A stretch of DNA of 64,000 nt from Pelagomonas calceolata (lineage: Eukaryota): contig CAKKNE010000005.1 of NCBI GenBank assembly GCA_918797485.1, forward strand, positions 1,674,001-1,738,000, given 5' to 3'. The notes beneath the pieces were generated by a model that had not been told where the DNA came from, searched no databases, and worked only from the letters and a program-made list of their open reading frames with translations. The number at the start of each line of letters is the position of its first letter. Within the stretch, counting starts at the first letter, position 1. Positions 1-58,579 of the stretch are shown in pieces. The position numbers and the translations under genes are program-made.

Positions 1-344
1 TGGCATCACGAGGTCCCCATTTCGTCGGCGCCAAGGGCGGCAGCGCCTTATATGGCGGCGCGTCGCGGCCGGGCCCGGGGGGCACCGTCACGGTAACTGC
101 AGCGGCCCGGCGGGTCACGCTGGCGGTACCGTGACCGTGACCCCGGCCCGGGGCCGGGGCCGTGACTCAGGTAGTACCGTGACTCAGGTCCAGCAAGACT
201 CAGACAACGTAGCCGAGATAGCGGACTGTCACGGTAATTTATCACGCCACGGTAATTTAATGTGCAATAATATGTAAGGGGCTACAAAGATACATATCGC
301 GGATACTTCGTTACATACTTTTCTTTTAGCTATCTTTCTCGATC

Positions 345-968: not shown

Positions 969-1682
969 ACGGCACCCTGATACTCGTCGGAATTGAATCA
1001 AACCACACTCGTCTGGGCGGATTCTCCACAGGGGGAATTTGCTACTGTCAAATAGAGAGGGACTTTTTTGTCCCTTAAGTTACATGGTACTAGTAGCATG
1101 CCAGAGTGACGAAAATATGAGCCATGACCGTCATTTTCGACTTGGATATGAAGTTGAGACTGCTATTGCCAGCACGAAGCCTAGGGTGCAATTTACGCAC
1201 TTGCGTTCTTTTTACGTGAGAAAGCGGCCCACCGTAAATTACGCCGTGTTTTAATCGTAATTTATGCGTGCTCTTGTTTAGTAAAACCCGCAGATATATA
1301 GCTAGAGTCTCTAAAATGGACTTGTTGTAGCCACGCAGATTGCCAAAAGCAGCCTGAGCACGAGCGTGATCTGCGTTCCGTGTAACTATGCTGCGCGCCC
1401 CACGCACGCGGTATAAGACGCCAGTACTACTCTCGGGCTGCCGGGCACCGCCTTCAGCGCCGAGTCGTCGACGAGGTAGCGACCTCAGGCTCCGAGTCGG
1501 TACTTTGTCCGAGTCTAGCGGCCCGGGGCCACCACTGGCAGGGGACTGGCAACCACGGGCCGGAGGCCCTCCGAAACATCAAGTTACACCAGAATCCACT
1601 TTACCCTCCAGTATTACCCCACTTACTTCCGCACTTACACTACCTAGGTAGTACTTTCTTACACATTTAAAATTAAGCGGGC

Positions 1683-6220: not shown

Positions 6221-7421
6221 GGAAGACAGGGAGACAGTAAGAGATTTTAGCTAAAAATAGCTAAAAATCCCTGGGGGAGGGGGGTCGTTGCCACTAAGAC
6301 AGTGAGACACGAAGACAGTAAGACGCGGTCCTCAGGTTCTGAGCAAAAGAAGGCTGCCCAACACCATTGACAGGCGTAGGGAGTCGTTGCCGCCTCCAGG
6401 ACGTGTCGTTGGTCCAAATCGCTCGCGTGCCGGGCAGCGCGGCCGGCGGCCGCTGCGAGAACGGCTGGCGTCGACGACGACTGCGTTGCGCGACTCAAAC
6501 CGATGGCGCGGCGTGTCGTCGAGAGCGCTCCGCTGCGCGGCCGCGACGCGTGCGCGCGGTTGCGCGTTTTTGCTATCGACGAGTTGACCGGACGCGACTC
6601 GTACGAAGCGCGGCGCGCCGAAGGCAGCAAAAAGTCGACGCGGCTCTAAAGCGTCGCAGCGCATTTATGACGTGTGTGTCGGGAACGCTCGGCCAGAGCA
6701 CTAGCCACGGGGACGGGCGCGACGACGCGCCAATATGCAAAAACGTGTCCGCCAAGTTTTTGGGTGGTCGTACCCTAACACCCACCCAACCCCCCGAATA
6801 ACCCTGCCACGTGTGCTTAACCCGGCTTGGGGGGGCGCTGTCCCCACCCCCCAAACCACCCCAGCCTTCACGTTCGCCCCGACGTGCGTAGCCGCGATCA
6901 TTCGAAGGCGACGAGCGTCCGGTACTACCTTGCTGAAGGGACGCGCGCGAGCACGCCACTCTCCGGCGGGCGACGGGCGATCGCCCCTTGACTTTCTTGA
7001 ACGCTGCCTTCGGCGCGGGTTCGGCGCGCCGCGCTTCGTACGAGTCGCGTCCGGTCAACTCGTCGATAGCAAAAACGCGCAACCGCGCGCACGCGTCGCG
7101 GCCGCGCAGCGGAGCGCTCTCGACGACACGCCGCGCCATCGGTTTGAGTCGCGCAACGCAGTCGTCGTCGACGCCAGCCGTTCTCGCAGCGGCCGCCGGC
7201 CGCGCTGCCCGGCACGCGAGCGATTTGGACCAACGACACGTCCTGGAGGCGGCAACGACTCCCTACGCCTGTCAATGGTGTTGGGCAGCCTTCTTTTGCT
7301 CAGAACCTGAGGACCGCGTCTTACTGTCTTCGTGTCTCACTGTCTTAGTGGCAACGACCCCCCTCCCCCAGGGATTTTTAGCTATTTTTAGCTAAAATCT
7401 CTTACTGTCTCCCTGTCTTCC
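6221..7421. repeat. Long inverted repeat (fold-back): ~400-bp arms 6221-6628 and 7003-7421 around a ~375-bp spacer
   Basis: Arms read as reverse complements (ggaagacagggagacagtaagagattttagctaaaaatag... vs ...ctatttttagctaaaatctcttactgtctccctgtcttcc). Mirrored ORFs in the six-frame track confirm this. A partial extra copy of the outer end lies at ~7459-7510. Confidence 0.95.
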
Positions 7422-7920
7422 TGTCTTGTGCGAAAGCCAATCCTGGGGGCCCCGGCATATTTTAGCTATTTTTAGCTAAAATCTCTTACTGTCTCCCTGT
7501 CTTACTGTCTTAGGGGAATCCCACCCTGGGGGCCCTGGCCGCGATTTTGCCTATGTTGCCGTCAATGACCCGCTGTGACCCGCCTTTTGGCCTATGTTGC
7601 CGTCAATGACCCGCTTCTCCTGTCTTACCAGCAAGAGTAAAACAAATTTCTACCTTGGTTTAGGTCCCATAGTGGGGTTGAATTCGATTCGGAAAAGGTA
7701 CTAGCGATCTCTTGAAAAACCACGGCCCGGGGATGTGACGCGTAGATGCCGGCGCAGCGAGCAGGGGATATCAATCTACATTAGTGCATAGCGTTGTTCG
7801 AGAGCGTTGAATATCGTAGAGTCGGGTAAATGCCAACCTAGAGCTTACTGCAAACTTGAACTTTTACGTAAGTACTTCCTCCGAGTCCACCTACTTGGCG
7901 CGTCCCGAAGACGTCCAAAA

Positions 7921-10679: not shown

Positions 10680-11762
10680 AATCGCGAGGTTGGCGATCTT
10701 GGCTTGGACACCAGGTAGGAGGCAGGACACCAGGTAGACAGACAGTAGCGCTAGCGCGACGCACGCGTCCAACATCGCAACCGCGGTCCAACTTTGCCTC
10801 TTTCAGGCTTACCTTATTAGGCACTCAGGCTTACATCGCTCAAACTCAGGCTTACATCGACCACCCCCTGGGCCGGGCCTGGCCCCTTATCTGACATTCT
10901 TAAGAAAAGGCCGAGTTCATCCGTAAAGACCCGCACCGGCCCGCGTGTAAGTTGCTATGGCCGCGCGCTTCGGCAGTGTCGTATACTCAAACGCAGGTGC
11001 ATGCTCAGTGACTGGGGCTGCTCGACTCGAAGCGCCTGGAGATGCGGAATACTCTGCCTTTTCAGCACTTTAAAATACGCGCCTCTCGCCGAGATCCGGC
11101 GACAGGCGCATCATGGAATCTAACGAAGATTTCCTGCGTTGTGGATGAGACGCGCGTCCACTCAACCAGTATTTTCGTCTTGATTCGCCTGTCACGGTCT
11201 CAAATTTGCATTTGCCCCGGACAGTCGTCGCTGCGACAGGAAGGTCCGTGGTAACACCCCAAGTCATTTGCGCGTACTACGGATACTTTGGAGTGATGCT
11301 AGGGTAAGTTTAGGGGCGGTTTTCGCGGCGCGCAGCCTGCTCAGGCTGGTTTCGGACGGTATCAGGTACTAGGCCCGGGCCGGGCCTGGCCCGAGGGTTC
11401 CATTGGGCTCCCGCGTAGGCCTCGGCGGTCAGATACAGATTCTTGTGGGACCGCGGCCTACGCGGAGCCACTGGCAGCGCTGGCACGGCAGGACCTTTCC
11501 GGGGCGCTCGTCTTCGACTTCAAGTTGCCAGTGAATTGGCGGACTCGATAGCGGAGCCCACTCAGGTTCCCCGGCCCGGGACCCCCGGTTGCGCAGGAAC
11601 TTGGAAGTTGGAGACGAGCGGTACTTCCGTTGCTTACCACTGCAGTTGTCGTGGCCGCGCTAGCGAAAAGTAACTCCATCCGCAGCTCGCCTTCCAAAGA
11701 GCCCATGCTATCTCTTGACTTAGCCTTAGGTCTAGTATTCTAGTACGTTCGACGAGTTGAAG

Positions 11763-21576: not shown

Positions 21577-21856
21577 AGCATTCATTTATTTAGGTATCAT
21601 ACGGAGGCTGATTGATTTCAATATAAACGAACGAAGGAAGAGGTGGCGTCTGCCAGTGAGCTGATGCAACCGCCCAGGAAAACACCTTGGCAAATAAATA
21701 AATAGAAATAAATACCGCCGGCGTGACTTGGTCCCTAAGAAGTTAGCCGGAGACATTCCCACTGGCATATGTATTCATAGGGCGCCACCCGGGGTATTTC
21801 TTTCTTCTAAGATTAGGACGCATCCTCCATGAGTCCGAGTCCGAGTCCGAGTCCTA

Positions 21857-22224
21857 CCCTGCGAATCATGATGATCTTAATACTGCGTGGAGTCTTCGAA
21901 ATTTATAGGGGGGTCAAGCGCAATAGTCGACGTTGATTTGATTTTTGGCGCAATGCGCGTACAACCACGCGCCGGCCGAATGGCTGGAAATTTTTACTGA
22001 GGCAAGTTCCGTATGCTAAAATAATGGGCTGTGCAAAAATTGGCACCATGCGGGCAGCCTCGCGCTGAGAAAGCAGCTGCGACGCGGTGCGATGGTCCGA
22101 GATAAAACCCGCCCAAAAATCGCCCCTGAGACGTATAAATTGAACCATAATTACCGTGACGGAAACTTGAAAATTATTTCCGAGCGTTCCATATCTATAC
22201 AGGACTCAAAGGGATTTTCCGGTG
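21857..22224 (+). mobile_element. MITE-like family B, copy 1 (partial copy at ~22600-22790; full copy inverted at 43911-44200)
   Basis: Shared core gttccgtatgctaa..atgggctgtgcaaa..gcagctgcgacgcg..gatggtccgagataaaacccgccc..atatctata..ctcaaag. Begins TA|CCCTGCGA. Confidence 0.75.
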
Positions 22225-23169
22225 TTGGCTAGGCCGAACGTTCCCAAGCATCCGGAAGAACCCAGCAGCCTGAGAGGTAGGAGTAAGTTTGGAGGTCGGA
22301 GGGGGAATGGGAGGGGGTCCGTGGCTACCTATGACTACCTTTAGATCAACTTGACGTTGACCTGGGACTTAAGCTGTCCGTTGCCACATGTCAACCAGCG
22401 GGCGGTCGGGAGAACATATTGGGTGATGTCGATCATGATGGCGAGCCAGTTGGACGCCGCTCAAAAGAAATCATCGCCAGGACGATGGAATGACCGCGCC
22501 GCGCAAGTTGAATGGACTTAGAGGCTGGCGACGCCGACCACAGGGAGTCTTTTGTCACCTTTGATTGTATTGGGCTCAATCTGCGTACAGCCACGTGCCG
22601 CCGGAATTTTTACTGAGGCGCAGGTTCCGTACGATGGGCTGTGCAAAGTTTGGTGCAGCTGCGACGCCCGGGCCGGGGATGGTCCGAAATAAAACCCGCC
22701 CCAAACCGAAAGTCGTCCTGTACATGTGACCCGTACTAATCATGATTACGAAAAACTATTCCCTATCGTCCCATATCTATATAGGCTCAATGAAGGGTAG
22801 GAATGTTTCGTTTAGAAGAACCAAAGGACACCACGAAGACATAGTTTCGGACCGGGTGGGCCAGGACCACTGGCATATTTTACCACCTTGTGCCCGTGTC
22901 CGACTCGGCCCGCACTAGATCATTGGATGACTGGTTCTCTAGTCGGGTACGAAGGAATTAATTTTCGTTGTACTTAAGAGAAGAGTTGGATTGCAGGACT
23001 TTGGTTTCGGTGTCACTGGTCAGGCCGCTGTGAAGTAAGGTTCAGATCTCGATTCCTACCCTGGACCTGGAGAGCTGAGCAGCAAAATGGGTGACTAGTC
23101 ATTTGGGATTTTGCTAGTTGGGAATTTGCTCTCCGCGATAATCATGCGCCGGCGGAAAGTTTAGCTCGT

Positions 23170-23616: not shown

Positions 23617-24118
23617 ATTTTGTGTGTCGGCGATCGCGAGCGAATAAGTATACACAGTATACTAGTATACTAGTAAAAATTCTAGTTCGCCCAACTGAGG
23701 TGGGGTCGGCTCTCCCCCTTATTAATTGCACCGGCACCCTCGCAGGCTAGTCATGCGCAGTGCGCCACGCGCAGAGCAGTAGCTTTGGGGAACTCGCACT
23801 GGCAGACCGCCGAGACGGCTACCTCTCAACGCGGCGCGCTTGGCTTTAAGCATGCCAGTGACGCGGAACTAGCGCAAGACCAAGTAGGATCAGTGGGACA
23901 AGTAGTCTCATCCGATCGGACATGCGGCCGCGGGGGCGGGTGCGACGCAGTGGAATAGAGCGAGAGTATATACTAAGATAAAGCCACTAGGACCAGATGA
24001 GACGAGGATACGTGCCTTTGGACACACGGCGGTTTGCTTCATGTTGAATACAGCTGCGCTACTGAATACAGCTGCCCCACATGCGCGCAATTAGGATCCT
24101 GTCGCAATAATGCAAACG

Positions 24119-26523: not shown

Positions 26524-26574
26524 CCTTCTAAAAGCTTTCTAACGACTATCCCATTATACAGTAATTATTCGGAC

Positions 26575-26637
26575 TGCGGTACCGTAGGTACCTGCGGTAC
26601 TTACGGTACCGTACCGTACCTACGGTACCGTAGGTAA
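26575..26637. repeat. TACCG/GGTAC word cluster upstream of the WDR60-like ATG
   Basis: ggtaccgtaggtacctgcggtacttacggtaccgtaccgtacctacggtaccgtaggta. Confidence 0.9.
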
Positions 26638-27367
26638 TCAACAAACAGTATCGACCTAAGGATGCTCCTAGGAATGAAGGGGGGCCAGGCAATCGGGGCC
26701 CGGGCGCGGCGTATGAGATACTTTTAGGTCCAGCAATCGGGGCGTGCCGGCCCGGGGCTCGGACTGCTTCCCAAGTCCCGGCCACCGTTTCGAATCGTGT
26801 CTTACCAAACATGAGTCGTATCCAAGGTTACCCGTCGAATCTACCTCAATCAAGAGTCTGGGCTTTGAAATTGCCTAAAAATGCGCTGCATGTACGGGCA
26901 TCGCCGCGCGCTGTTACTGCGGGCACAGGACGACCCTCCGATGCAAATCAGCATCTTGGCAAGTGCGGGTATGATGCGCAGCGCCGACGCGACGCTCGGA
27001 GCAGTACGCGCCAACTAGCTCATTCTTTAAGTCTACATGGACATCTAGGACAAGTGTCACTCACCACAACGCCATCTACGCCCCCCAAACGCCACAACGC
27101 CGATACTAGACTGACCCCCCGGGCCTTGATCATGAGGCTGAGGGGGATACTATTGCATTTTGACAGCCGAAATCGGTCCGGACGCTACCAATCCTGATCA
27201 AGGGGGAGTCGTTACTACTCCCGAGTCCGGCACTGGTGTAGACTCGGACTCCCGGGCGGCCGCCGAGTCCGAGTCGGATCCTTCCGTCGCCACCGCGGGC
27301 ATGCTGCTCCGCGGCATGAGTCGAGACGCGAAATATCAATCGCGTCGGTCGTGTGGTACATAAAGCT

Positions 27368-27496
27368 GTACCTGTACCTGCGGTACCTACGGTACGGTAC
27401 CGTATACATGCATTATGTACTAACATCATTGAATACCGTACCATGGTACCAGTACCACGGTACCTACGGTACCTACCTACGGTACGGTAGGTACTG
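27368..27496. repeat. TACCG/GGTAC word cluster upstream of the 27516 ATG
   Basis: gtacctgtacctgcggtacctacggtacggtaccgta...ggtacctacggtacctacctacggtacggtaggtac. Confidence 0.9.
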
Positions 27497-27515
27497 TGTG
27501 TAATACTAAGCACGC

Positions 27516-33127: not shown

Positions 33128-33590
33128 GAATGCATGGAAAAAACAAAACCTGAAAGGCTGCCATGGCCATCACCACGAACTATGCGTCATAAAAGACAGA
33201 CAGATATCGCTGCTGGCAACAGCCACGCGGGGCACTTGCGGTGTGCCCGTCCCAGGAGTATTTATTTACTTGTTTATTTATTTGGGTCCCAGATAGACTA
33301 GAGAGGATGCCAGATGAGTTTGGTCAGATAGCAAACGATTTAGTGGCCCACGAACGTTGCGACGGTGCCTGGCTCGGGCGTTTTGAGGTGGTCTCGAGAC
33401 TAGCTGACTACCGGACAACAATTCATCGAAACGGTGCCCGGTCCACACCCACGCCCTCGTGCACGCAGATTAGCGGCGAGTTTGTTCTACCCCGAAGGGT
33501 AGAAGTCAGCCTGAGGTCACTGTCACCAGGCACACTGGCCCATGGGCCGCCCCGTTGCCAGAAGCAGGCAGTTTATTTATAAATTATGCA

Positions 33591-33790
33591 AAAAGGTATA
33601 AACTCCTCCAGGGTCAGCTGCCCTGAGGGCAGCTAACCCTGGAGGAGTTCACACCTTTTCCCCTGCGGGGGGCTGCTCCGCAAGGGTGCTAAATCCGGCG
33701 TGGGGGGTGATGGTTCGGGTTTAAGACTTTTTGATTCTTATAAACCACCGATTTCGGGTTTCGCGGAAGGTTACTGAGTCTTCGTGGCGT
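33591..33790. repeat. ~200-bp hairpin-containing dispersed repeat D, copy 1 (copy 2 inverted at 50076-50276)
   Basis: A near-identical reverse-complement copy exists (both give the ORF start MILINHRFRVSRKVTESSWR). Terminal ~70-nt palindrome. Confidence 0.93.
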
Positions 33791-34385: not shown

Positions 34386-37300
34386 CTAGGCTTTATTGTC
34401 AGGTGGACATACCCTGCCATAGTAAATCCAAACCTACATCGAAATGAAAGATGACATGGCAACGAGTCTTTGCAACACTGCCACACACCGAACAAACATG
34501 ATTTATGATCGGATGTACGTATGCCGCTACAATGAACTGGACGTCTCGATGTGTGACATTATGGATATTCATCGCACGTAAGCGCTCAAGAACTCCACTC
34601 GTGTTGGCGTAGGGCAGGTTGACTGCAATAGCTTCAATACCCACGTTTTGAGTAAACCCTAATGTATCCTCTTTGTGTGCCTGTATTGCGGCGCCAGTCA
34701 ATTCACCAGAGTCCCGGAGTGCTTCTAGTGCTGGCAGTAAGCTATGACAACCGACTCTCAATAAGAAAAAACCAGAGATGTTCTTACTTTTGCAAACGCC
34801 GAGATATGTCAACATTGAAAGAAGTGCTTGCACAACGACGGTTCCCTAAATTCATACGCCATCGGCGGACTGATTTCTGCGCAAAATTTGATATATTCAG
34901 ATACAGATAGACATATTATTGGCCTTACCTTGATTTCTTCTGTTAGCTTGACTTGAATTTGTTCCGCGTGGACAATATTGGGTGCATCATATCGCAGATG
35001 CAAGTCCTGAATTGATGCCAATGTAGCAGGTCGTGAAATTCGCGAGGGCCCAGGGTTACAGACACAACTACATCCAATGCACCAATCATCCCTTTGGGCC
35101 GATGGATCTTGAAAGAATGGCCGCCAAATGCTGCTGTCCTTTACATTGTATGATAGCAAGTGAGGACTGGTATCTCCTTGTATATTCGCAAATATATTTT
35201 CCGCAGTGAGAATGCAGCCGATGTCAATTAATGGAGATTGTTTATGACTCGCGACAAATACATCTCCAGTGCACGGATTCCAGAAAGAAACACCACCGTC
35301 TCCCGAGTGCGTGTTTTTTTGCATCACATAAACAGTGTCTCCCTCCGGGAGCCCAGAGCCAATAACCAGATACCATTCCTCTGACGCGGAGTCAGAAGTG
35401 GCACCTTTCAATTGCAACCAAATGATCAAGTTGTGCAAAAGTATCCCATGTTCTTCCCAGTCCCCGGCACCGACGTCAAGAAATTCCTGTGAGGTGCACC
35501 AAATATCAAGACTTGCGCATCCAAATGATTTCCAATCTTCCAGGAATGGGATAAGGCTAACAAACCGCGCCACTTGGTTGAGACAACTTACGCCCGGAGG
35601 TGGTGTTTGTGGACTTAAGTAGCGACAAATGAGAACTGCATCTCCATTCATATTATTCCCAAAAGCTTGAACGAGGCGTTTCGATATGCGCCCATCGACT
35701 GGTCTTTTAATGATTTCATTCATATTTTCAAAGTAGATTCTTAGCTGCTGAATCCAGCTTGCACCATACCGAATAAGCCGCTCGTCTTCCATTGAGGAAA
35801 AGACAAGTGGATCTTTGAACGGTACTGACAAAGGGGGGCGCAAGAACACAGCAAGGTGCAGATATGACGCAGCCTTGGATTCGTATGTCGAAGAAGGACT
35901 TTGCCCCTGGAAGTCATGGGTACGTATTGTAATCAGAGGTGTCCTTAATCGAAATTGACCCTCCAAGTATCCATTGACCCCACTGTTAGAATACAGCGTT
36001 ATGAATGGTATCTCAATATCTCCAATGAATTCATGCCTGGTAGATGGATCTCTGTACATCTCTTGGACCCGTTGGGTAGGTGTTTTGAGAAGTGACTCTG
36101 AAAAGAGGCTCAGCCGTAAACAGTCGCTAACATGCATCAAGCTGGTTGGTGAAAAGTCCCCCAAGGTTGGAATAAATGGGAAGTCCAGGGTCTCTTTCCA
36201 ACGTGGTGTGCGTCCCATTGCCAACATTGTGCGGCGGGAATGCTCTTGGAAGGAAGCAAACACAAACTTCCCCGAGTTATTTCCAGCTGCCTTGGCAATA
36301 TTGTCACTATCCATCGTCTGTTCTAGTGGGAAATCTGCTAGTTGATGAGCGGAGATGATCTGCACCAGCAATGAACAATCTCTAGCTGAAGATATCATCA
36401 TTCGCCGCTGACGCGAAGGCCGAAGAGAGCGTCTGCGGCGTGCTGTATACTCCAAAGCAGCATCAATCAATCCACGTGCACGTAGTTGTGGCAACGCATG
36501 TCCTTCGCTGACTAAGGCTGTGAGTGGGAACGAAGAAGCTTTTTGTGATGTGCGCAAACGAACAGTGACGCTGTCTTGAACTTGTTTGACAAATGCCATT
36601 ACCTGTCGATCTCTCTTCAGGCCATTAGTATCTATAGTACCCCCCCCTCCCGATTTATGTCCTATTGTTTGCTTTCCCAAGGCCCGCTGACCACGAATAT
36701 CGTCCTGCACAATGAATTTTTGCAGGAGAGCATTCGCGATAGTTGCCATATCTGTGGCCGGAACAGGTTCACTCATCAATGCAGGTTGATGCATCCGGAG
36801 TCTTAGAAGGCGGTGTCTTTGGGAGATTGGTGCATGTTTGTATTTATCAAGTGCAAATCTTATGCGAGAACCAACAACTTCTTTCGGTAGCTCACACATC
36901 GACGCATCTTGCTGTGCTTGACTCGGCTTGTATTGAGAATGAAATACCTTGCGGGCCTGAACTGCCCCCGAAGTCACCTGGTGTCGATACTCGCCGGTAC
37001 GAAAAGCTCTTTGTGATGCCGCTTTGATGTGGGTCCCCGTCATGCGCCCGCGTATAAATGAACAGGAGCCCCTTGGATCATTAGGATCACCTTTGCTATC
37101 AATTTTATGCGTCTCTGAAGCACAAGTCTCGGGTGTCCGCAGCCAACGGCATCCATCTGTCATGCCTGCATCCAACTTATCTAGGCCTTTTCGCAAGCCA
37201 CAGGGATGCTGTTGGTTAGAGGATCGCAGCGATTCCGAGAGAGCGTTTTCAGACCCGGCAGCTGGGTCGTAGGAGCAGGCTTTCAGCTGTTGATCTCTGG

Positions 37301-38846
37301 CTGTCCAATACAGGGACACTAGCGCAGCACCAGCGAGCTGTCGTTGGCTGACCTCAAACTGCAGCCATTCACTAAAAGGTGCCAGCGAAGCAGCGTTCAC
37401 AGCGTCATGACACGCTGATATACCAGGGACAGGCACAAATATTGTTGCAAGGTGGACGTCGACAAGAAGTCTCCTGCGCCAGAACTCCACCTTGAGTTTC
37501 ATAGGATGCCGAGCAACTATTAATCTTAGAGGCTGCTCAATCCGAATTGTGAATGCGGGCCAAGCGACTGCCTGTGGTAGTGTCGTAGCAACCCGCCGAC
37601 CATTCAATGATAAAATTGCATAGAGGTGCTGTTGTCGCACACGCCGACGACGCATGAGCTCTCGGCCTGGTAGTGATTCTTCGTCATCAGCTGTGAGCCC
37701 AGCAGTAGTGTACAGCTTCAAAACAAAATCGGTCCTCATTGTTAGTGTTCTACAACATCGCTTGAATCGTGCAATAAGACGCTCTTGAGAGGGACTGTTT
37801 TGGTTCTCTGAGGCATATTGAGCAATACGTGTGAGCATTTTGTGAAAATTGTCGAGTAGTGGCTGCATTGTTCTGGAATCAAATTGAGGAGACCGACTGA
37901 TATTTATGGCAACTAACTTCGCAGGAGTAGATACGAAATTCTGATGCTGGCGCAGGCCTTTCAGCTGGTTCCAAGTAGTGTAGAGCGCCTCCGCGATCTC
38001 ATTCATGGCTTGTTGTTCAAGTGCCAAGGCATCTAAGGTTTTGAAGCAGCTTGAGCTCAGCTCAGTTACATCTACTTCGTGCTCAACTGACATGTCCAAG
38101 TTTTGTTGCACCGCATCCAGTAACTTGTGGAGACGGAGCCTTAGGTAGCTAGTTTTCTGAAGTTTGAGAATACGGTGGTACTCCCCGTATAATAGCCGCA
38201 TTTGGGCATACAGTCTGTCTTCAGAACCAAATAGTGGATGCTCATAGAGGGCCAACTGGGTTAGTATTACATGCAGTTCTCCATGAGTGCCCGTCAGTGA
38301 TGTATTGCTAGTGTATTCGGGCTGAGAAATACGCGTAGAATGGTGTGCTGGGGTATCGAGTTCTGCAGAATTGTATAGAGGTGGACGCTGATTACCGACT
38401 TTAAGGGGATTTGATTCAACTCTTAATGTGCCATCGTGCGAAAATAAATTCAGCATGTGCAATAAAGGCTGGTGGCGTAAAGCCGCTTCGAAGAAGAAAC
38501 GTTCACTAGCTCTCGATTCATCCAACTCTAGCAGCAAACTAGCCATTGGTGGGGGTACAGGAGTATAGGTTCCAGTCCTTGGGTCAGGACTGGATGCAGA
38601 CAGATCTCGGTTAGATCTGACCGACATGGACTTAATTTGGGACCAAGCGTGCACAAGTTTCCCAGTTTTGTTCTTATAACAGGAAGCCTCCGGAAAATCA
38701 GAGAGCTCCTCCTCGTTTAACAACATGTCCTCACCGAAGAGACATGGGCGAAAAACAGCACTCGACGAACGCGACAGCTGGACCTCTGCGTCTGCACCGT
38801 TATCGAAGAGTTCGGGCAGATTATCCGCGCTTGATTCAGGGCTCAT
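34386..38846 (-). CDS. CC2D2A: Coiled-coil and C2 domain-containing protein 2A (MKS6), ciliary transition zone
   Basis: EHPLFGSEDRL motif; C2 domain FVFASFQ..GRTPRWKETL; VARFVSLIPFLED..DIWCTSQEFLDVGAGDWEEHGILLHN, FWNPCTG, NIFANIQ; spliced C-terminus YVHP..CS|VWIYYG. Confidence 0.92.
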
Positions 38847-40342
38847 GCCGAAATTAGATATTTTAATTTGAGTGCGGCGGGCTCGTTATTATTATGTATA
38901 TCTCGCGATCGGTTTAACTTACAACCGTCTGCCGATCAACTGGGGTGTAGGTACCGCTACCCCTGTTAATGCCCCCATTGGAGCCCAAAACTCCGTTGAC
39001 GCTTCGCATCCGCACAAAACCCGAGGTTTCCTCGTCGATATCGCTGGCGAGGCCTCTGGTTTATCCGCACGCTCCCGACTCGGAAGGGCCTTGCGCCACT
39101 GGTTCAGGTTTTTCCGAATTTCGCTGAAGTCGCGCACGCGCCAACCGTACATGTGTGTCAACTCGGAGTTTCCATAAGGAGAGCCCCCGATAAAAGTCCA
39201 GAGACGAACTTCAAGTTTCAGCTGGCCAGGGGACTCAGGCTCTGGCAAGTCAAAAGCCAAGTTAACCCCACTACTCAGGTTTACAAATCCTGGAGCTAGC
39301 AAGACACGGCACGTGCGGATCATGAGAACCCAGAACCCAGAGACAACCTTTTGCCACTGTGTCAGAGTCCGAGTCGACAGGAAGATGAGCACGACTCGGA
39401 TATCATGATATGAGCAGGTCGCCGATGTTTGTGGCTCAACGGGAATGAGAGGTTGCAGCCCTCACCCCGGCCGCGTAACTCTGCCAGCCGCGGACCTCCT
39501 TAGGTCCTCCTACAAACTCATCGTGACAGTGACTGCACTGCCAGTGGTAGTCTGAGGGCTGAGAGTGAGACTGGGGCCATACATAAGTAATTATCATGAT
39601 GACACGGTGACACCACTTCTCCCTGCGGAACTTGAAATGCCCTCATACATATGCCATTGGCACATGTCACCGTCCTCGCAGCCTGAGTGGCGCACCAAGC
39701 ACGAGTCCATCGCTTGGCGGCCCGGACCGCCCGGGCAAGCGCCCGCCGCAGACCCCGTGGTATTTCGGGAGATTTATTCGCGGTCGCGCGGGCGCCGCTT
39801 TGGAGCCGCAGCTGTTGGGCGCTTCAAGTTGGAAGCCACGGCGACGACTGGCTTTCGACGCGCACGCTGCAAGCATGTCACGGCGAGTGCCAGAACCCTG
39901 CGCGCCCCCGCCCCTGGCGGCCAATCCCCATAAAAGCGGGCACACGGGGAGCTCTTTCAAACTAGCGACCGTGACCACTGGCACGTCACGGTAGGATCAT
40001 GATAACTTGAAGTACCAGGTACCAGTGCCCGAGTCACGGACACGGTGCGAAACGGGATTCAGGGTCAAACCCATCGGCGTGGGGCCACCGTGACTCGGAT
40101 CTTTCCTTGATCATCATGATGATTGGCAGCCTGCCAGTCAGTGCCAGTGTCAGTGAATGCCACTCGCAGTTGCGCGCCGTCAGGCAGCGTAGGGTCGTCC
40201 GAAACATAATGTATAGTACTTCCGGATAGATCAAGTAGTCCAGGTAGCTGTAACTTCAGGTGGTTCGACTCAAATTGCTCGGTATGTGAGTAGCTTACTT
40301 AGCGTATCTCTCAGACGACGTCAAGCGTTATTTAGAAGTAGG

Positions 40343-42730
40343 ATGACGCGGGACGACCAGAATGATTACCTGGAACGAGTTCTAAAGTCTCTTGTGCTGG
40401 ACGTGAATAGGCTCGCTGCTCGCGTCCACCATCTGGAGAGTGCCCATGGCCCCGCAATCATCAACATCAAGGAAGAGATGAGTGCTCTGACCGCCAACCT
40501 CCAAGGGTTTGTCTCCGTGGACGATCTAAGCGAGAGGCAGCGCCGGGAACGTGAGTGTTACGTGCGTCACTCAAAAAATGTGTTGAAAAAAAGGTGGGAC
40601 AGTGGTCCCCAGCTACCCGACCCCCTTGAGTTGCAGGCATATGAAAAAAAGTCTTCTTTGCCTGATTTCTCCCTGGAAAGTGTGCACGTACCATTCGAGT
40701 CTACGAGTCGACTGCGAGCAAAACAACGATGGCGCTGGGTATTACTGAAGCTCAGCATGCGACATATTAGGAGGAGAGTTCCCATGTCGAGCTCATACAT
40801 TTTGCAACGACGGTCGTTTGCCACGCGTCTCCAGGAGCTGGAAATACGCACGAACCACACGGAATGCCGCGTACGCTGTATTTTAGCGCAAGCAGGACCT
40901 GATAAGTTTACCAGGGTAAATCAAATGATATTTTGGCTCAACAGAGCAATAAACGGAGACGAAGGTCGAAATTTGGAAAATGCACGGGGCATTCTTCGCC
41001 GACTTGCGGCCGTGGAGGAGAAAATGAGCAATACGCATGAGCTTGCAACTAAAGCAAACTTGCGTAGCGAATTGACTGAAAGACATTCAGAATCTTTAAA
41101 ACTTGAGATTCGAGATGCTGCGAATCAGGGAGCCAACGCATACAAAGCAGCGATGTGTGCCAAAAACAAACTCGACGAATCAGAAATATCCTATAAGACC
41201 AGGCTCCCTCGTGCCCGTGCCCGAGCTAGCTTTATGCTGCGATGCTTGTTAGATACATGCTGCAATGCTATACAATCGAGACATGTTGCTGCCCTGCCTG
41301 GGGGTACCAGTCTGATTAAGAATCGAATTTCACCGTTATACCATCTGCTGAAAACTTCTGAAGTCACTACCAAAGAAACACCGGTGAACATGGAGAATTG
41401 GCGAAATGTAGCACGCTCCATTGCACGAAATTTGTTCCTTGTATTACGCCAAGACAAGCGGTTGCAGGATATGAATCGCAGAGCTCATTTAGACAATATG
41501 TGTACATTACTGGATGTGGGCGTCGACTTGCATATTGACGAAACCAACGCTGACATACTACCACTTGAACATGGCAGCAATTTAGTAGTTGGAGTCAACA
41601 ACCTTTTGAACGCACGCCAACTCGTGCACGCCTGTGCCCGACAGATGTTAAAATATACGTACTTTGACTGTTTCAACTTAGGCTGAAGCGTGTCTGCGAT
41701 CTCTGAATGTAGTCTTGACATTAGATGAGGGCGACGAATCGACCGATGCGGGCATGCTGGCTCTACAAGCTTGGTGTGTGGGTAAGGACGGTCCTGATGC
41801 AGAAATGGTGAACTCGCAGTTGTTTAGTTTAAATGCAGGGCTTGTTGCTCTTCAAGCCTCGCTTAGCTTTATGCCTGATAACTCAGTCGTTGAAAAATTA
41901 AAAGAAAGAATGCAACTAATTGAGCATGCAAAAAGTCAGTCCTGTGACAACGTCGCTGCAGCAAGTATGCACAGCAAATTTGATTTTCATGCCTCTCTCG
42001 CTGCAACTACGCAGACTGTGGACAGACTAAGAGATGAGATCAGCACAAAAGCAGGATATGAGGACACGCGCATAGCTTTGAGTCTCCTCGAAAGAGAAGT
42101 GGTTAAGCTCGGTGAGACGACAGTTGAACAAAGTCAGCTTGAAACAATTCTACGTTCGAAAATAGACCGCAACGACTTGAGTCAAATTGCGGCTCTTGTA
42201 GCAAATGGCAACTTCGACGGAATAAATTCACAAGTCACACAGACGTGGACCCGAAACACCAGATTTGTCCTTTTAAGACTTGAAACAAGATTATCATCGC
42301 AAATAGGTTGCTGCGAAACTCCAAAATCCCCGATTGCGCTGCCTCTGTTGTGACAAACCATTAACCAGGGCTAGCGTGAGCATGGAGACTATACTCCAAA
42401 CACCGCAATCACCCAGCTCCAATCCAGCAAACGAAGCAAATGTCCACAGCAAAATTTACAATATGGATAAATAAATTTGCTCGCACAGGCAATGCTAGTA
42501 AACTCGTCACTCAAGACCAAATACCTCTCGGTAAAACCGCAAAACAGCTCAAGTATACTATCAGGAGAAACACCGGACATCATCAAGTTAAATAGGCTTG
42601 CTCCAGAACCACCCTTCTTGCCAAAGTGCGTTTTGTATTTTAGCGGGAATTCCAACGTAAAGTCTCTTGTTGGCGCATTATAGGTCCGAGGTTAGTCGAT
42701 ATCCACGTTTAAGACCTGTGCAGACTTCGT
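40343..42730 (+). CDS. Hypothetical coiled-coil protein with a C-terminal RCLCCDKP motif (DUF4795-like), multi-exon
   Basis: Long ORFs 40286-41686 and 41715-42353, then a spliced VAAKLQNPRLRCLCCDKPL. Both ends are approximate. Confidence 0.55.
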
Positions 42731-43639
42731 TGCGAAAAGCTAACTAGAACTGCAAGCATCCGGCGGCATCTGCACAACAAGCGCAGATATTTACACCGCA
42801 AGAAGCCAATCGACCCCGAACCATCACATGGAAGGATTGGATTGAGACTCATTGATTCGTCCATAGTGGTCTTAAGGATGGCCATGTGCGCATTTCAGAA
42901 GCTTCGCTCGGACGATCGTCTGCAAAAACAGTTTCAAGGTGAAGGACTGTACTAATCTGGTTCAAACGCGGGGCAAGTTGTCTGGACTCTATAATCGTCC
43001 TCTTCTGGCCCGGTTTAACTCAAAAACATTCCTTCGCCAGACGCTATGCTTGAGGTTTCACTGATAGCCTTAGACTACAGCCTGGGATGCTTCGAGTTCC
43101 CAAAACGGTTCCTGGCCTGCGCGGCCGGGTCTCCCCTATAAACAACTAATTGGAAAATTGAGGACGGAGGAGGCAGGGCTCCACATCACGCCGCTCGGGC
43201 CGACGACGCTCAAGTCCGAAGACGCGTGTTTGTCGCCGCACGCGTCCCGGCACGGGTTGCGGTTCCACTCGCGTCCCGGCTCTCGGCGTATAAAGCAGGG
43301 TCCAGGTCTCCTGCGTCAGCAACGGCACGGAATTATCCAGTCGCCAGCCTCGGGCACTACTCGCCGCGTTCTGCTCTTAGCCGAAACGCATCGAGTCCCA
43401 CTCTCAATAGCGACTCGTCGGGGCGCCTCCATGTCTGGTGCGGGGGCCTCCCCTAATTTGACATTCGAGTCCCCAGCCGCTTATGCGCCGGCTAGCTACT
43501 AGCCTGACTCGGAGGTTACGAGACCGCAAAGAGGTCCTTTGCGTGCCCCAAGACCGGAATGGAGTAATATAGGCTTGGTGTATGTCCTTTTTCTTTAGGA
43601 TATTCCTTCCTTAATTAATTATTTATTTATTTATTTATT

Positions 43640-43910: not shown

Positions 43911-44200
43911 CCCTGCACCGGAAAATTCCTTTGAGCCCTATATAGATACAGAGCTATATGAAATGACATGTCCATTTATACGTCTGCAGACAATTTGTTG
44001 GTTGGGGCGGGTTTTATCTCGGACCATCGCCGCGTCGCAGCTGATTTCTCGGTGTGAGGCTGTCCGCACGGTAGAAAACTTTGCACAGCTCATTATGTTA
44101 GCATACGGAACCTGCGCCTCCGAGTCAGCAAAAATTTGCCGCCAAAGCGCCCGAATCCCCTAAAATTCGAAGTCTCCACGGAACATTAAGTCTCGCAGGG
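43911..44200 (-). mobile_element. MITE-like family B, apparently complete 290-bp copy with CCCTGC...GCAGGG termini
   Basis: Reverse-complement homology to 21857-22224. Terminal inverted hexamers. Flanks are CA (left) and TA (right). Confidence 0.7.
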
Positions 44201-44621
44201 TAATTCGGCCTAAATTCACCTTAGGGAGGATCGCTCAGAATCTTACTGTCAAAACTTTCCCGCCGGTGTGGGGGTGCTAGTGGGGGGGCGCGCCGGGGGG
44301 GGGGCTGGTGGGTGAATTCACACCCTCAAGTTTAGGCTTTACCCTCAAGTTTAGGCGGTCGTGTTCTTGGGGCCATGCCGGTCACTGGCACGCCGCGGCT
44401 GTCGCCAGTCACTGGCGGCCGCACCGTGACTGGCATCCGAGTCTGGTCCGAGTCTGGTCTTGACTGTAGTTCTCAAAGGGCTACTCAGGCTCTTTGCTTT
44501 TCTTAGTCCTTCTTTGGGACTCTTGGAGAGTTTCGCGACGTCCATCTATCCTTCTTCTAGTATCATGATGCAATGCAAGCTCGTATCTCGCCGCCGACAC
44601 ATATTGTGACACAAAACCGTC

Positions 44622-46223: not shown

Positions 46224-47754
46224 ATAGAACTTTGACATTCGATATTCCCGGGCCTTACAACTGATCCTTACGACTTCGCTTCATGAGCCTCATAATTTAC
46301 AAGCAGATGCTTGGCGGGTCGCGGTTAGTAAACCTAGCGGATGATACAAAAAACACATACATAATCCAAGATATTGATTTCCGATATGAAAACCACCCCT
46401 TTCTTCGAGTCACGGTTAGTACCGGGCAGTGACCGTGACAACTTGCAACCGTGACCGTGAAACTTGAAAATACTACAAGTACAAAAAATACTTTCAAGCC
46501 TGAGCCTGGGTTATCCGCTGGGGGCGATAGTACCATACTAGGAAGCTTGGGACCCGGGCCCGCCAAAATCCCCGGGCTGTGTCGGTTTCAACCTCAAGAC
46601 CACCACCGTGACTCGGACAGCGTGGTTCACTAAGGCTGCCCGGACCAGTGGCAACTCAGGCTTGAAGTTGTAGCAACTTGAACTGGACGAGTAGGAACCT
46701 CGGCTTTCTTGTCAGTCTTGATAGCAACTTGAAGGGCACGAACATATCATGATTACCCTGACCGCCCAGGTGGCTTTAAAATTTTGGTACCGTGACCGTC
46801 ACAATACACAATACACAATACATCTTGGGTCATATAAAGAGACCTCAGGCTGGATAAATAGATGGGAGCGTCTCCGGCCCGGAATGGGATGGCCGAATTA
46901 CCTCTCGCACCCCATAAGGGAACTGTATAAAGCGGAAAGACGAGTTGCTCAGCGATCACAGTCTCTGAACAAAAAACAAACTCGATTAAGGATGTGAACG
47001 GCCTCGCTGACAGCCGCAGCCCTCCTGGAATACCCTGAATTCTGCCATTTTTTTTTGCTCAAAACCCCTTGAGCGATGCGGATGCTCCGATAGTTAAGCT
47101 AATCGGTCAAAACCCGTTTAGCTGGCAACTAGTTAGTTAACTAGCTGCGTCTAAACGGGCTGATCCGTGCCCGGCGTCCTAACCCGTCCGAAAGGTATCA
47201 GCCGCGGGTCACTAAGCCTGACTAGCCGCCCACCCTGGTTCGAAGCACCTGACTAACTACCCAGGGTGGCAACGCGTCGTCTGCGAGCAGCTTCAGGACA
47301 CGCTTGCAAAGTCCGCCAAGGCAAGGACGTCCACTTGGGGCCGAGCTCAAGTCCACCCCAAAGTGGCCGAAGGGGCACCGGACGCTTCAAAGGGTCTACG
47401 CGGCCTTATTCCGTCAGACGAGGTTACCCGCCATCTGGTGAACTTGCCCTTGTGTACAGAGGCAGGATATATTAGAATTAGACTAGGGTTAGGGTTGGGT
47501 TGGGCGAGAGTCGGGTTAGAGCGGATCCGAAATGGTCCTAGCGTCGGCGGCAGTTTCGCGGCAACATGGGCTCATCGGAACGCGGGGAGCGAGAGAAATG
47601 TTTTAGACGGGCGGAAAGGGCGAGCGGCGAAGAATAGCGTTCTGACCCGCCCCTGGACCTACGGCTCATGGACCCGCACCTACAGAGAGCACCCTTTTAG
47701 GAAGGAGGTCCATGCGACCACCTTACTCGGTCCTAGCCCGACGGGTGGGTCCAG

Positions 47755-48255
47755 GGGGAGCGGGACCGCCTAGCCCTAGGTGGCCGGCGGCCCCCGGTGC
47801 CCCCCTAGGTAGGGCGTAAAAAAACCGAACCCGGCTCATTTCGCAATTATTTTTCGCGCGGTTCGCTGCCTCGCGGCGCGACGACGCTGCTCAACGACTG
47901 CGTTAAGGCTATGTCCACACGCACATGATCTCAGCGACGGAATTGGCACAGATAGCTGCCCCTGCGCGTTCCACTGGCTTCAGTACCTTCTCGGGCAGCC
48001 TCGGCTCGGCGAAAATTTTTCGCGGGGAGCCTCCGAGTCACGGGGCGCGTCGAACGGCCGAACTTCAGGCCAGCTTTTCTCGGCCGCATCACGTGCCCAA
48101 CTGCCAACACAACGTGCGCTGGATAGCCCTATCTATGGGCTTTCCAGCGCACCATCCCGTGGCAGTTGGGCACGCAATGGCGCTCAGGCTGAGCACAGAA
48201 CGTGTCACGGTTTGGCGCCAGTGGCCACAGCTCTAGGTCTGCACTGCAGAGGCCG
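47755..48255 (+). repeat. Hairpin-containing dispersed repeat E, copy 1 (copy 2 inverted at ~53835-54138)
   Basis: Both copies translate to QHNVRWIALSMGFPAHHPVAVGHAMALRLSTERVT on opposite strands and share ggggagcgggaccgcctagccctag and aaaattttttcgcggggagcctccgagtcacgggg. Confidence 0.92.
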
Positions 48256-49564: not shown

Positions 49565-50075
49565 TTCGCAAAGCTCTTATCTACCTTCCTCCGGCCACAA
49601 ACATCTGCTTGGGCAACAGTCCTGCACTCTCGGGACTGCATCGCAGCAAAGTAGACCCCGTTAATAGACGATATTTGGACTTGAGCGACTAGATGTCGCC
49701 CGGAAGCTGGGGACTAGACCCTTGGTCGCTACTCAATCAGTTTGAGACCGAGTCTGTTTAGTATGGAGATGGTAGGTCGGTCTGTGAAAAATGGAGGAGT
49801 AAGCATTCGTACTTTACTAGTAGAACTTGCCGTTAGTAAGTTTAGTGCAGATTGGTAAGTTAGGAAGCATCTACCCAATGCCACATATGGGCTATTTACA
49901 ACGCGATGACTAAGTGTCTAGTGGGGGTTAGAGTTGGGGGCCAATTCAATTTCAGCAATCTTTTTTTCTTTCTCCTTTTTATACTTGCCAAGGCAAAGCG
50001 TACTGACGTTCCGTCAGCACGTTTCACCGCGAGAAATTCAACGTTCCGGTCGGCGAATCGAATGCTCCGCACCTT

Positions 50076-50276
50076 ACGCCACGAAGACTCAGTAACCTTC
50101 CGCGAAACCCGAAATCGGTGGTTTATAAGAATCAAAAAGTCTTAAACCCGAACCATCACCCCCCACGCCGGATTTAGCACCCTTGCGGAGTAGCCCCCGG
50201 CAGGGAAAAAGGTGTGAACCAATCCAGGGTTACCTGCCCTCAGGGCAGCTGACCCTGAAGTGGTTCATACCTTTTT
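50076..50276. repeat. Repeat D, copy 2
   Basis: Reverse complement of 33591-33790. Confidence 0.93.
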
Positions 50277-51543
50277 TCTCTCCGACTCGGCCCCGGGAGT
50301 CTGAGTCACCGTGACTCGGACCGAGCCTGAGTCTCAGGCTTACGCAGTAAAACTCTAAAAGCCTGAGGGCTGCCAGTGCGGCTAACGGAACCCTCTAGGA
50401 CGCGACCGATTCCATTGAATGGGCCGGTACTAGTAGTTCAAGTTCAAGTTGTGTTCGTTATTTGACCTCACTGGCCACAGCCTGAGTCATACCACGGCGG
50501 GATTTTGTTTTTAATTTCTTTTTGGCATCCGCCAGGCAGGACATAAATAATAATCATCATCATGGCACGCCTGGGCAGCTACTGACATCATCAGTGACAT
50601 GTACTCCTCTTTCGAACTTCAAGTTCTATTGAGTTCTATCGAGGGTGGAGGATTCGGATGAAGCAAAATCTTCAAGTTGACGCGATGTTACAACAGTTGC
50701 ACTCGCCGAGGCGCCCAGATGTTGCCCTGCTACATCATATGCTACTAGTCCAAGCGGGTCTAGTTGCCGTTAGCGTGGGTGTGCAATAGTCACCGTTGGC
50801 GTCGAAAGAACGGAATGCTCGAGGCGTTTCTCGCAAAACATGTTGACGGAGCTAGTAGACGATATACAACGCTGTGGGGCGGGGAAGACCGTCGAACGCC
50901 ACTGATGCTCGCTGGCACTCCAGGAGATCGCGATGGCCATGATTCCTATCGATCTGTGACCCGCGTGCTTTTGTCAAACTTCCACAGCTCGGAATTATTG
51001 TAGTCTGAAATACTCGGGTCTTCAAGACCAGACCTTCTTAGGTTGATGATACCAATCATTCTTTCCAATAGTTCACTATTCATCCAGTTAATGTGCTTGC
51101 GCAGTCAAGCGGGGTTTTGAAAAGCAGTTGTAATTGCAGCAGGAATTCCTGTTGAATGAACGACCTTACTGCGTGCCAAACCAATACCGTTTGCAAAGCT
51201 TGCGCTAATTAAACGATTCCGCGTGGTCGATCCTGATGAGATGGATGACGAAGAGAATTTGCATATAAATGATGACGATGAGATGATGAGTTGTGTAGAG
51301 AAAAGAGTTCGGAACACATGCCTATATCTGTCGAGTCATCTCAGATCATCTGGACTAGTCACTAGCCACTGCAGCAGCAGCCTAGAACTTGAAGATGGTA
51401 CCTGGATTTCGGTTTGGGTTCCCAATCACGGTGCGTCGTCTACTTGTTGTGGAGCACTTGTAGTGACGCAAGACTAGCCGCATTTTCATTGCAGTCAAGC
51501 CCATAGACGCAGAAGCCATCACATAGTACTAGAAGATTATGAG

Positions 51544-53834: not shown

Positions 53835-54138
53835 CGGCCTGTACGCTGAGGGTAGAGCTGCGGCCACTGGCGCCAAACCGTGCCAGTGACACGTTCTGTG
53901 CTCAGCCTGAGCGCCATCGCGTGCCCAACTGCCACGGGATGGTGCGCTGGAAAGCCCATAGACAGGGCTATCCAGCGCACGTTGTGTTGGCCGTTCGACG
54001 CGCCCCGTGACTCGGAGGCTCCCCGCGAAAAAATTTTCCGAGGGGGTTGCCGGCTGAGGCGAACCCTAGGGGACCACCTGGGATCGCCGGCCACTGGCAC
54101 CTAGGGGCCGAGGCTAGGGCTAGGCGGTCCCGCTCCCC
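53835..54138 (-). repeat. Repeat E, copy 2 (internally deleted)
   Basis: Reverse complement of parts of 47755-48255. Confidence 0.9.
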
Positions 54139-56667: not shown

Positions 56668-57248
56668 AGGAATGTTCGATTGAAACAGACCACCATTGCC
56701 TTTTTGGGGGAGGAAGACGACTCCTGACGCTGACAGCGTCACAATCAATACATTTATTCCCTGCAAATTACCCCAAAGGCTGTCATACGATGGCAACAGT
56801 GTCACCTGCGGCTCTGATACTACTATCAGGGAGGTTCATATGGCAGGTGACGACTCAAAAAACAACATTTCGCTTGGGGTCTGAGTCATGCCAGACACTA
56901 TTTTGCGGTGCCGGTTGGCGGTTGACTTGAAATCGCGCTTCAAGTTCACTATCCAGAGAGCGAAAATATAGTGCCAGCGGCCAGGCCCGGGCGTCCTTGG
57001 CGCGGCTGCCGGGCAACGCTGTGGAGTTAAATGATTCCTGCCCCTACCACCGCCACGGACCAAGGTCACGGTAGCGTCAGCATGACTACCACGGCGGTGA
57101 GTCGGAGAGCCAGTGTATTACTTGTGCACTACGCCGTCTACGGTACTTAGTATATACATACCTCAATTTGCGCTGGCCCGGGGGCATGCTTCGAACTGGA
57201 TTTGTAGTAGATAACTTGAACCTATAATTACTTACAACCACGCCGTAG

Positions 57249-57658
57249 TATAAGGATTTTGCATACTTTATGTCCCGTCCTGAGTCCTGACTGATAAAAC
57301 ATACTCAGGCTCAGGCTAGTAATAACTTGAAGACCATTAAAAATCCGACCGTGACTCCGAGGCTCGGTCACGGTATTCAGTTCTTGAACTTGAAATCCGA
57401 GATAAACTTTGCCAGTGAAAGCCGGCGTCCCCCTTTTTCGCCAATTATGAATGCTGCTAAAATCTTATGAAAACTTAAAAATCGTGATCGCCGAATACTT
57501 CGCCCGTTGGAGAAACCGTGACAGTATAGACGAAACATATAAATCTAGTTCAAGTTCCCGCCCCCCCGGGCCGCCTCGGGCTAACGGCGTGGCACTATTT
57601 CATACGTTTCGTGGGATCCGATTCAGAGCGAAGTCACGGTCGCCACGGCAACGCAGGG
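57249..57658 (+). repeat. Repeat C, copy 2, expanded by multiple 6-bp insertions
   Basis: Colinear with 43640-43880, with extra ctcagg, caagtt, cacggt and cttgaa units. Confidence 0.8.
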
Positions 57659-58464
57659 CGATGTTGGCGTAGCCCCCGCCGACCGAGTGAGGGATGGTGG
57701 CGACGTAGAGCGAAGCTTAAGCGACCTGGCTCGCGTGCCACGCAGGACCCTGGAGGCCCTAGTCGCGTCACCGACGTGGCCACGATGGTTATTATCAGTA
57801 CCGCGTCACGGTGGGGCCACTGCAACGAGTTTCGGCCTAAACTTGAATGGGGCTTTGACGACCACGAGAATGGGACTTGGCGGCGGAGAATAGTGAATAT
57901 GATTAGGGCGTCATAGGCCACTGGCAGTCTAAGCCTGCATGTGAACCGGGCAGGGGGCGATATCGCAGTTGCAGCGTATAGCCGCGATGTTGCAATGTGT
58001 GGCCCCCATGCGGGTATTATCCTAATCGCGATTTTGGGGCGCTAGCACTTTGGGGTAGACTCGAAAGTGAACCCAGCAAATAGGGGTGGGGCTCCACGCC
58101 GGGGCGTGGTCGTCCGGTGGGCGGCCAGCCTGAGACTCTGAGTCAACCGGGCCGTCACGGTCACGGTCACGGTGACCGTGACCGTGACTGGGCACTGGCA
58201 GCCGGCTCCCGGGCCGGACCGTGTAGCGCTGGCCACTGGCACGGCCTCAATTTAGGGAGCTTGAAGGCCCAGGCCCGGGCCGGCGGTGGCCTTAGTGCAA
58301 GACATCGATTTTGGTGATCTTCAACTTCAACTTCAACTTGAAGTATGTTGCAATTTCATTCAGTCCTATCTTGAATTCGTCGCGCAAGGGGTCAAAGTCA
58401 CGTCGACGGGCCAATCAACCCTCCATATTTGGCTAGTGCCTACCGTGGTGTTGCATAATATTAT

Positions 58465-58540
58465 GTACCGTAGGTACCGTAGGTACTAACCAAAACCTAC
58501 AGCCTACCTACGGTACCAGCAAGTACGGTACCGTAGGTAT
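58465..58540. repeat. TACCG/GGTAC word cluster upstream of the dynein ATG
   Basis: gtaccgtaggtaccgtaggtac...cctacctacggtacc...gtacggtaccgtaggta. Confidence 0.9.
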
Positions 58541-58579
58541 TCAACGCGGCTCATAATAGTAGGATGCAACGCTGATATT

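Follow-up and report, generated by a model that had tools for sequence, protein, structure and literature searches.

Six-base insertions in spacer DNA of Pelagomonas calceolata follow a single dinucleotide rule and are probably excision footprints of a transposon

Non-coding DNA of Pelagomonas calceolata carries a real and highly regular signature, a family of 8-mers of the form d-C-rc(d)-G-d, where d is a dinucleotide and rc(d) its reverse complement. These words arise as single-step insertions of 6 nt at a pre-existing dinucleotide, in any flank and for eight of the ten strand-symmetric classes, and the scars so formed vary between alleles from the wild, and some lie within older ones. We consider it probable that the +6 insertions are footprints, of stereotyped form, left on excision by a cut-and-paste transposon that has C...G ends and makes a 2-bp target-site duplication (TSD); the element and the enzyme behind the scars are still to be caught.

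In the stretch of 64 kb that was analysed as a whole (hereafter the window), d-C-rc(d)-G-d has 189 matches, whereas the other 15 families of the form d-X-rc(d)-Y-d have 15-52, so that the control patterns are not equally enriched; 14 of the 16 words rank among the 50 commonest 8-mers of the window. When the frame d-C-xx-G-d is compared with the full rule, rc(d) is the clear top middle dinucleotide for 14 of 16 d. The focal spacer at 39200-40150, in which the initial annotation of this DNA had counted about 18 words by inspection, holds 19, whereas a first-order Markov null gave 0.34 on average and never more than 4 over 5000 runs. The five almost back-to-back words that it had described there were located at 39968, 39976, 39985, 39996 and 40004, and all seven regions that it had named as filled with the same words hold 20-55 words/kb (Table 1). 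Its remark that the words are scarce in exons is borne out by a count in which long-ORF intervals, picked by hand, contain 12 words in 31,971 bp (0.38/kb), while the remainder contains 177 in 32,029 bp (5.5/kb). Words thus make up ~4% of the non-ORF bases of the window (177 words of 8 bp in 32,029 bp) and, in the densest spacers, 16-36% of all bases. The annotation had also stated that all ten classes occur; all are indeed present, but CG and GC, with 3 words each in the window, are not clearly enriched. The focal cluster itself occupies a divergent spacer, with a CC2D2A-like gene on the reverse strand to one side and the next gene on the forward strand to the other.

To widen the sample, the multicopy repeat R1 was used as bait, which favours low-GC loci, and 30 metagenome loci were collected; counts refer to the window plus 15 of these 30 loci, a roughly non-overlapping set of 229,306 bp. 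This set contains 590 words, as against 64-213 for the control families. Enrichment is not limited to two or three classes: under an order-3 Markov model, 14 words, that is, eight of the ten classes, were each observed 25-55 times where 2.3-5.6 are expected (~9-20-fold), while the CG and GC words stay below 2-fold (17 observed vs 9.1 expected and 17 vs 10.3). The repeat unit is exactly 2 bp, as 1-, 3- and 4-bp analogues are not enriched in the same 229 kb. Word density is 0.6-10/kb in 29 of the 30 metagenome loci; one locus (L025) has none, and two (L016 and L020) lie near the control rate. An assembly artefact is ruled out, since metagenome contigs that were assembled independently show the signature too, and it is present in loci of a sister lineage as well (L007, ~92% identical in coding DNA). 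Across all loci, 62% of the bases that directly flank the target are C or G, a mild preference, and CG and GC dinucleotides are scarcely used as targets, which may have a link to methylation.

How the words arise is seen in alignments. In an all-against-all comparison of the window and the 30 loci, 21 of 29 six-nt indels with clean flanks follow d -> d-C-rc(d)-G-d without deviation, and among indels longer than 1 nt the 6-nt size is the most frequent (53, 23, 15, 11, 2, 29 and 7 indels of 1, 2, 3, 4, 5, 6 and 7 nt, respectively). In a set of 12 alignments, most of them between alleles, the rule also fits 6 of the 9 six-nt indels. Among window paralogs, read by eye, four of five six-nt gaps are exact and the fifth has a single mismatch; one of the insertions is nested in an older word. 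The copies of R1 give the polarity: with 29 distinct copies, and an insertion called against at least 5 other copies, 3 of 4 six-nt insertions fit the rule against the copy majority, and therefore the long form is the derived one. The 6 bp at 44119 are missing from contigs of runs X5, X12 and X16, and a comparison of the window with the wild allele L002 shows three scar events in ~20 kb vs about 149 substitutions. Collapsing all words uncovers 18 and then 1 further word, as against 0, 4 and 0 for controls, and second insertions are found at all seven internal positions of a word (46, 13, 12, 30, 12, 13 and 46), where the counts at the end positions may include growth by slippage. Template-dependent writing, rather than selection of binding sites, had been proposed from the sequence at the outset, and the single +6 insertions at existing dinucleotides support this view. 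A separate observation concerns an AT site of R1, where copies in L001, L012, L014, L015 and L018 carry three different insertions of 6-12 nt that duplicate 5-6 flank bases; these break the main rule and are possibly minor repair products.

The same data bear on whether the words were made by selection, as protein-binding, centromere or promoter signals, or by replication slippage. The words are confined to non-coding DNA, in a putative centromere, as selected signals might be, and tandem arrays of 6-nt words exist that may lengthen by slippage. However, eight unrelated classes are present without a common consensus, and slippage cannot make +6 inserts that hold an inverted copy and two new bases; in fact, plain tandem duplications account for none of the 29 six-nt indels. 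Moreover, six other classes of words occur at only 0.22/kb in 56 viral loci that were chosen by the same hexamer microsatellite, vs 1.65/kb here. As an origin of the words, selection or slippage is largely refuted and we hold it to be most improbable; some words may have been co-opted at a later stage.

Table 1. Positions of word clusters, individual scars and neighbouring features in the window
Feature	Position	Strand	Remark
Cluster of 19 words, 6 classes	39210..40149		16% of bases in 39200-40150 inside exact words
Five near back-to-back words (AC, CA, GT, AT, AA)	39968..40011		
TC word in one R1 copy	44119..44126	+	Other copies have bare TC and are 6 bp shorter
CA word nested in older GT word	53881..53888	-	Paralogous copy at 48204 is the older word alone
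AG word	22267..22274	+	Paralogous copy near 7941 is AG alone
CA word	23797..23804	+	Paralogous copy near 8495 is CA alone
GT word	57633..57640	+	Paralogous copy near 43860 is GT alone
CC word	27118..27125	+	Missing from wild allele L002
Dense cluster	46400..46860		24% of bases within words
Dense cluster	50280..50490		36% of bases within words
Dense cluster, 29 words	57060..58350		Nested 6-nt-periodic arrays near 58154-58188
Cluster, 7 words	60..240		
Cluster, 5 words	1480..1570		
Cluster, 6 words	11340..11530		
CC2D2A-like gene beside the focal cluster	34399..38885	-	Pca_5p09670 by gene order; family by eye from translation
Gene on the far side of the focal cluster, likely Pca_5p09680	40343..41686	+	
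Degraded relative of the candidate element L007:10198-10760	10858..11400	-	Right end aligns to the G-run-TCG terminus; left end unrecognisable

Taking into consideration two traits by which a footprint of flank hairpins can be recognised, and which are found here: (i) insertion at an existing site with a direct target duplication (21/29 indels; 3/4 in R1), (ii) an inverted flank copy at a microhomology joint (14/16 d, and in simulation); we propose that the words are left by excision, as follows. The element would insert and duplicate d. On excision, the transposase would nick each end one base within the element, and the 3'-OH would attack the opposite strand, with the outcome that each flank is sealed as a hairpin d-C-rc(d) that keeps the terminal C of the element. 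A host nuclease would then open each hairpin two bases beyond the loop, giving 3' tails that end in rc(d) and d, and these tails, complementary for any d because of the target duplication, would anneal and be filled in to d-C-rc(d)-G-d. Alternatively, opening one base beyond the loop and joining without overlap would lead to the same product. The product would in either case contain d three times (d, rc(d), d) with a constant C and G, since the TSD would give two copies of d and the two flank hairpins two inverted copies, which would merge on annealing. Repeated cycles of this kind in the non-coding DNA of a haploid genome would build up the clusters of words.

In a simulation with a +1 nick in an element starting with C, the rule was obtained in 100% of flanks opened at position 2, in 69% when opened at 1 and joined directly and in 5% when opened at 3; nicks at -1, 0 and +2 gave it in 0%. 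The simulation of the +1 nick shows sufficiency, not proof. The central C and G are not derived from the flank, as only 142 of 1180 words (both strands), or 12%, lie between C and G and alleles show the bare +6. The same count excludes a hAT geometry acting on a 4-bp CNNG duplication, for which, in addition, the -1 nick gives 0% and the unit found is 2 bp only, where hAT footprints have a duplication of 5-8 bp. Artemis favours opening ~2 nt past the hairpin tip. Opening of flank hairpins by the host is described for hAT, Transib, RAG and Muta1 in the accessible part of PMC5499845, and, from the portion available of PMC5873905, the flank hairpins of Ac/Ds are opened by host enzymes and joined via microhomology. 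The cleavage geometry in which one element base is kept in the flank hairpin is a prediction of the model, and the literature searched gave no description of a nick at +1 together with a hairpin on the flank.

The same intermediate and product might also be reached by a transposon-free route, in which a host enzyme (Spo11/TopoVI-like) would make a 2-nt staggered break at any dinucleotide, both ends would be filled in, one untemplated C would be added by a Rev1-like dCMP transferase, and the hairpins would be sealed, opened and joined. Spo11 breaks have a 2-nt stagger and Rev1 prefers dCMP. This route, which we judge quite unlikely, would account for the scarcity of elements and for the missing transposase, and its enzymes have counterparts in the P. 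calceolata gene table, where Spo11 and Rev1-like genes are annotated. However, no such pathway was found in the literature searched, it is hard to see how an end linked to a protein would be filled in, the trough that contains the window is regarded as poor in recombination, and there is an intact element with C...G ends and a 2-bp duplication. In more general terms, it is unlikely that a host or domesticated break-and-hairpin enzyme continually rewrites Pelagomonas spacers with no mobile element needed.

A hairpin-free route would start with a staggered cut of the Tc1/mariner type that leaves the C of the element on each flank, after which a polymerase would add the inverted dinucleotide through templated fold-back or template switching. 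Tc1/mariner typically nicks inside the element, and one Tc1-like DDE protein is the only transposase among the P. calceolata gene-table entries listed. We regard this route as decidedly unlikely, given that Tc1/mariner is normally TA-specific, while 14 dinucleotides are used about equally here, and that inserts templated by a polymerase should differ in length, while here one product dominates; among d-X-rc(d)-Y-d forms whose spacers are longer, enrichment is confined to single values of d, mostly TA.

Returning to excision of a transposon with C...G ends, the best-scoring TIR with a 2-bp duplication is L007:10198-10760, which measures 563 bp and has a 26-nt TIR, C...G ends and AA on both sides. 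It is the only intact candidate with a 2-bp duplication found, it belongs to the sister lineage (62 differences in 828 coding bases), and a 2-bp match is expected by chance in 1/16. Many copies of its interior are present in run X1, where bin depth reaches 1734 as against 182, and degraded relatives in L006 and in the window align to the same termini, without a testable duplication. By class, the element behind the words would most likely be a relative of the CMCT clade (EnSpm/Plavaka/Transib-like). EnSpm is present in brown algae, according to the part of PMC12477816 at hand. A Pfam scan found no DNA transposase in 84 ORFs, and none of Artemis/SNM1, ligase IV, XRCC4 and DNA-PK is among the P. 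calceolata gene-table entries listed, though Ku70-like and X-family polymerase genes are. Elements are few against some 5 scars per kb, and no site was seen both filled and with a footprint in allelic and repeat-copy comparisons across the window and the loci.

Several other candidates were examined and set aside. At 49957-50277, where the wild allele has a word, the window has a 321-bp insert; this insert is without C...G ends or duplication and hence gives no support to the footprint model. In contigs of runs X5 and X12, 15 other bases stand in place of the 321-bp stretch, which opens with a 69-nt palindrome and has 201 nt in common with 33590-33790. None of the large allelic indels in L001/L008 and L011/L021/L024 has C...G ends together with a 2-bp duplication. 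R1 was rejected as the source element, as its duplications in L015 and L021, read by eye, are of 9 bp; R1 is a passive substrate for the scars. An inverted repeat in L016 (2111-4799; 180-nt arms, 96% identical) was likewise rejected as an autonomous element, as the reading frame that it encloses resembles DUF707 glycosyltransferases. The patterns of the candidate TIR and of R1 had no matches in viral and prokaryotic collections. The first TIR scan of the window was dominated by a 410-nt inverted repeat (6213-6622 / 7020-7429; 99.5% identical, 397-nt spacer), whose tandem subterminal repeats extend out to about 7620 and which resembles a 209-nt pair at L024:11277-12881.

A second insertion family is found at TA only, where TA becomes TA-CCG-TA-GG-TA or the reverse complement (+9). 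Its two forms have 18 and 19 copies in the 229 kb vs 0.02 expected each (37 vs about 0.04), with allelic indels; sites in the window are 26574-26645, 27374-27502, 54202 and 58465-58548, others lie in L001/L008, and GTAC-rich arrays are built by apparent re-insertion. This family is likely the footprint of a TA-targeting transposon; that it obeys the same grammar, which it would if the ends leave CCG and CC, is speculation. R1 measures ~450 bp and has short TIRs, and its copies lie at about 21780-22230, 22560-22790 and 43916-44280 of the window, at L015:6221-6676 and in L021. We take it for a non-autonomous element of the Mutator-like kind, and it could be among the repeats of low-GC regions that the genome paper leaves unclassified. 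With its 9-bp TSD and TIRs, R1 adds, together with the TA-only +9 family, other DNA-transposon traces to the same DNA. Further features were recorded in passing. At about 47190-48210 the window has a high-copy repeat with telomere-like TTAGGG words; its depth, summed over contigs, reaches about 1500 as against 30, and part of it is duplicated at 53853-54138. In run X16, a divergent strain, 54 nt are inserted at 39424-39430 and about 109 gap letters fall within 38500-43573. The reverse strand of L021 has a long ORF (1219-7206) for a reverse transcriptase of the copia type (RVT_2).

As to the genomic setting, from their translations, read by eye, we take the proteins of the window to include SPT16, ribosomal S1, WDR60, CC2D2A, THOC5, MSP-domain, WD40 and FAD proteins. 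An FNR gene lies at 20.4-21.6 kb and its nearest named matches are pelagophyte; the named P. calceolata FNR shares no more than 71-74% identity with it and is probably a paralog. The gene order of the window is that of Pca_5p09550-09740 in the P. calceolata gene table, as given in the available part of PMC9481584. DCC1, which is listed among the genes of low-GC regions (PMC9481584), lies five genes upstream of the window's genes in the published order, and the GC content of the window is 51%; on these grounds, the window most likely sits in the low-GC trough of chromosome 5, a putative centromere. This trough is marked as the centromere by Hi-C, and for low-GC regions no transposon accumulation and three unclassified repeats are reported (PMC9481584). 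In bins of 62% GC or more, 6 words of 7 classes were counted over 13 kb of mostly coding DNA. In L017 and L006, dense clusters adjoin genes with a GC3 of 0.70-0.72, yet they are near low-GC3 genes.

Excision footprints are usually met singly, in laboratory assays, while here they would form a visible share of spacer DNA. If the footprint model is true, the words record many vanished visits of a transposon in regions published as being without transposon accumulation, and the predicted cleavage geometry differs from those of hAT, RAG/Transib and Tc1/mariner. Since each insertion keeps the frame (+6) and can be recognised by itself, the scars could be of use as polarised markers in population studies, and counting them could show how often excision takes place in this abundant alga of the open ocean. 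If a transposase of new geometry, or a host enzyme, does lie behind them, they represent a major and ongoing class of mutation in the centromeric troughs of an abundant ocean eukaryote.

The initial annotation knew of no description of the signature, and a literature search, with most subscription journals outside it, likewise found none. The P. calceolata genome paper (PMC9481584) and the pelagophyte pangenome preprint do not mention it in the sections available, where the word 'motif' is absent from the main text of both, and the accessible text of PMC11282704, PMC12130899 and PMC3627910 has nothing specific to it. Footprints that derive from hairpins, with P nucleotides and microhomology, are known already; what was not found described is a single dominant C/G-centred footprint that occurs at nearly any dinucleotide, several times per kb, and segregates in nature.

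Among known systems, Tc1/mariner leaves scars with terminal element bases and a 2-bp duplication, as is proposed here; however, these scars are TA-specific and have no inverted copy in the middle, whereas here 14 dinucleotides are similarly enriched and an inverted copy is present. RAG/Transib and the MULE Muta1 are alike in that, in the part consulted of PMC5499845, a hairpin on the flank is opened by an enzyme of the host, for instance Artemis. The RAG/Transib joint, with a nick at the border, no element base in the hairpin and a 5-bp duplication, was rejected, as the nick at 0 fails in the simulation, and excision of Muta1 in yeast is >90% precise, unlike here (PMC5499845, same part). In the CMCT clade (EnSpm/CACTA, Mirage, Chapaev, Transib, Plavaka and ESTA), whose transposases are kin of RAG1 and are DDE enzymes with C(2)C and H(3-4)H motifs, termini begin with C and duplications are of 2-5 bp, as the words would imply for their element; the usual ends are CA..TG, while the candidate in the sister lineage starts with CG (clade features from the portion available of PMC12730594). 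Footprint data for CMCT members with a 2-bp TSD were not found in the literature searched. Ac/Ds, of the hAT group, is alike in having an inverted flank copy round a central base, flank hairpins opened by the host and microhomology joins, but the base at its centre is complementary to the flank base beside the element, its duplication is of 8 bp, and its footprints are heterogeneous, with 28 kinds in 128 clones (as far as covered by the available text of PMC5873905). In the Pelagomonas DNA, by contrast, one product dominates, its centre is always C/G regardless of the flank, and its unit is 2 bp.
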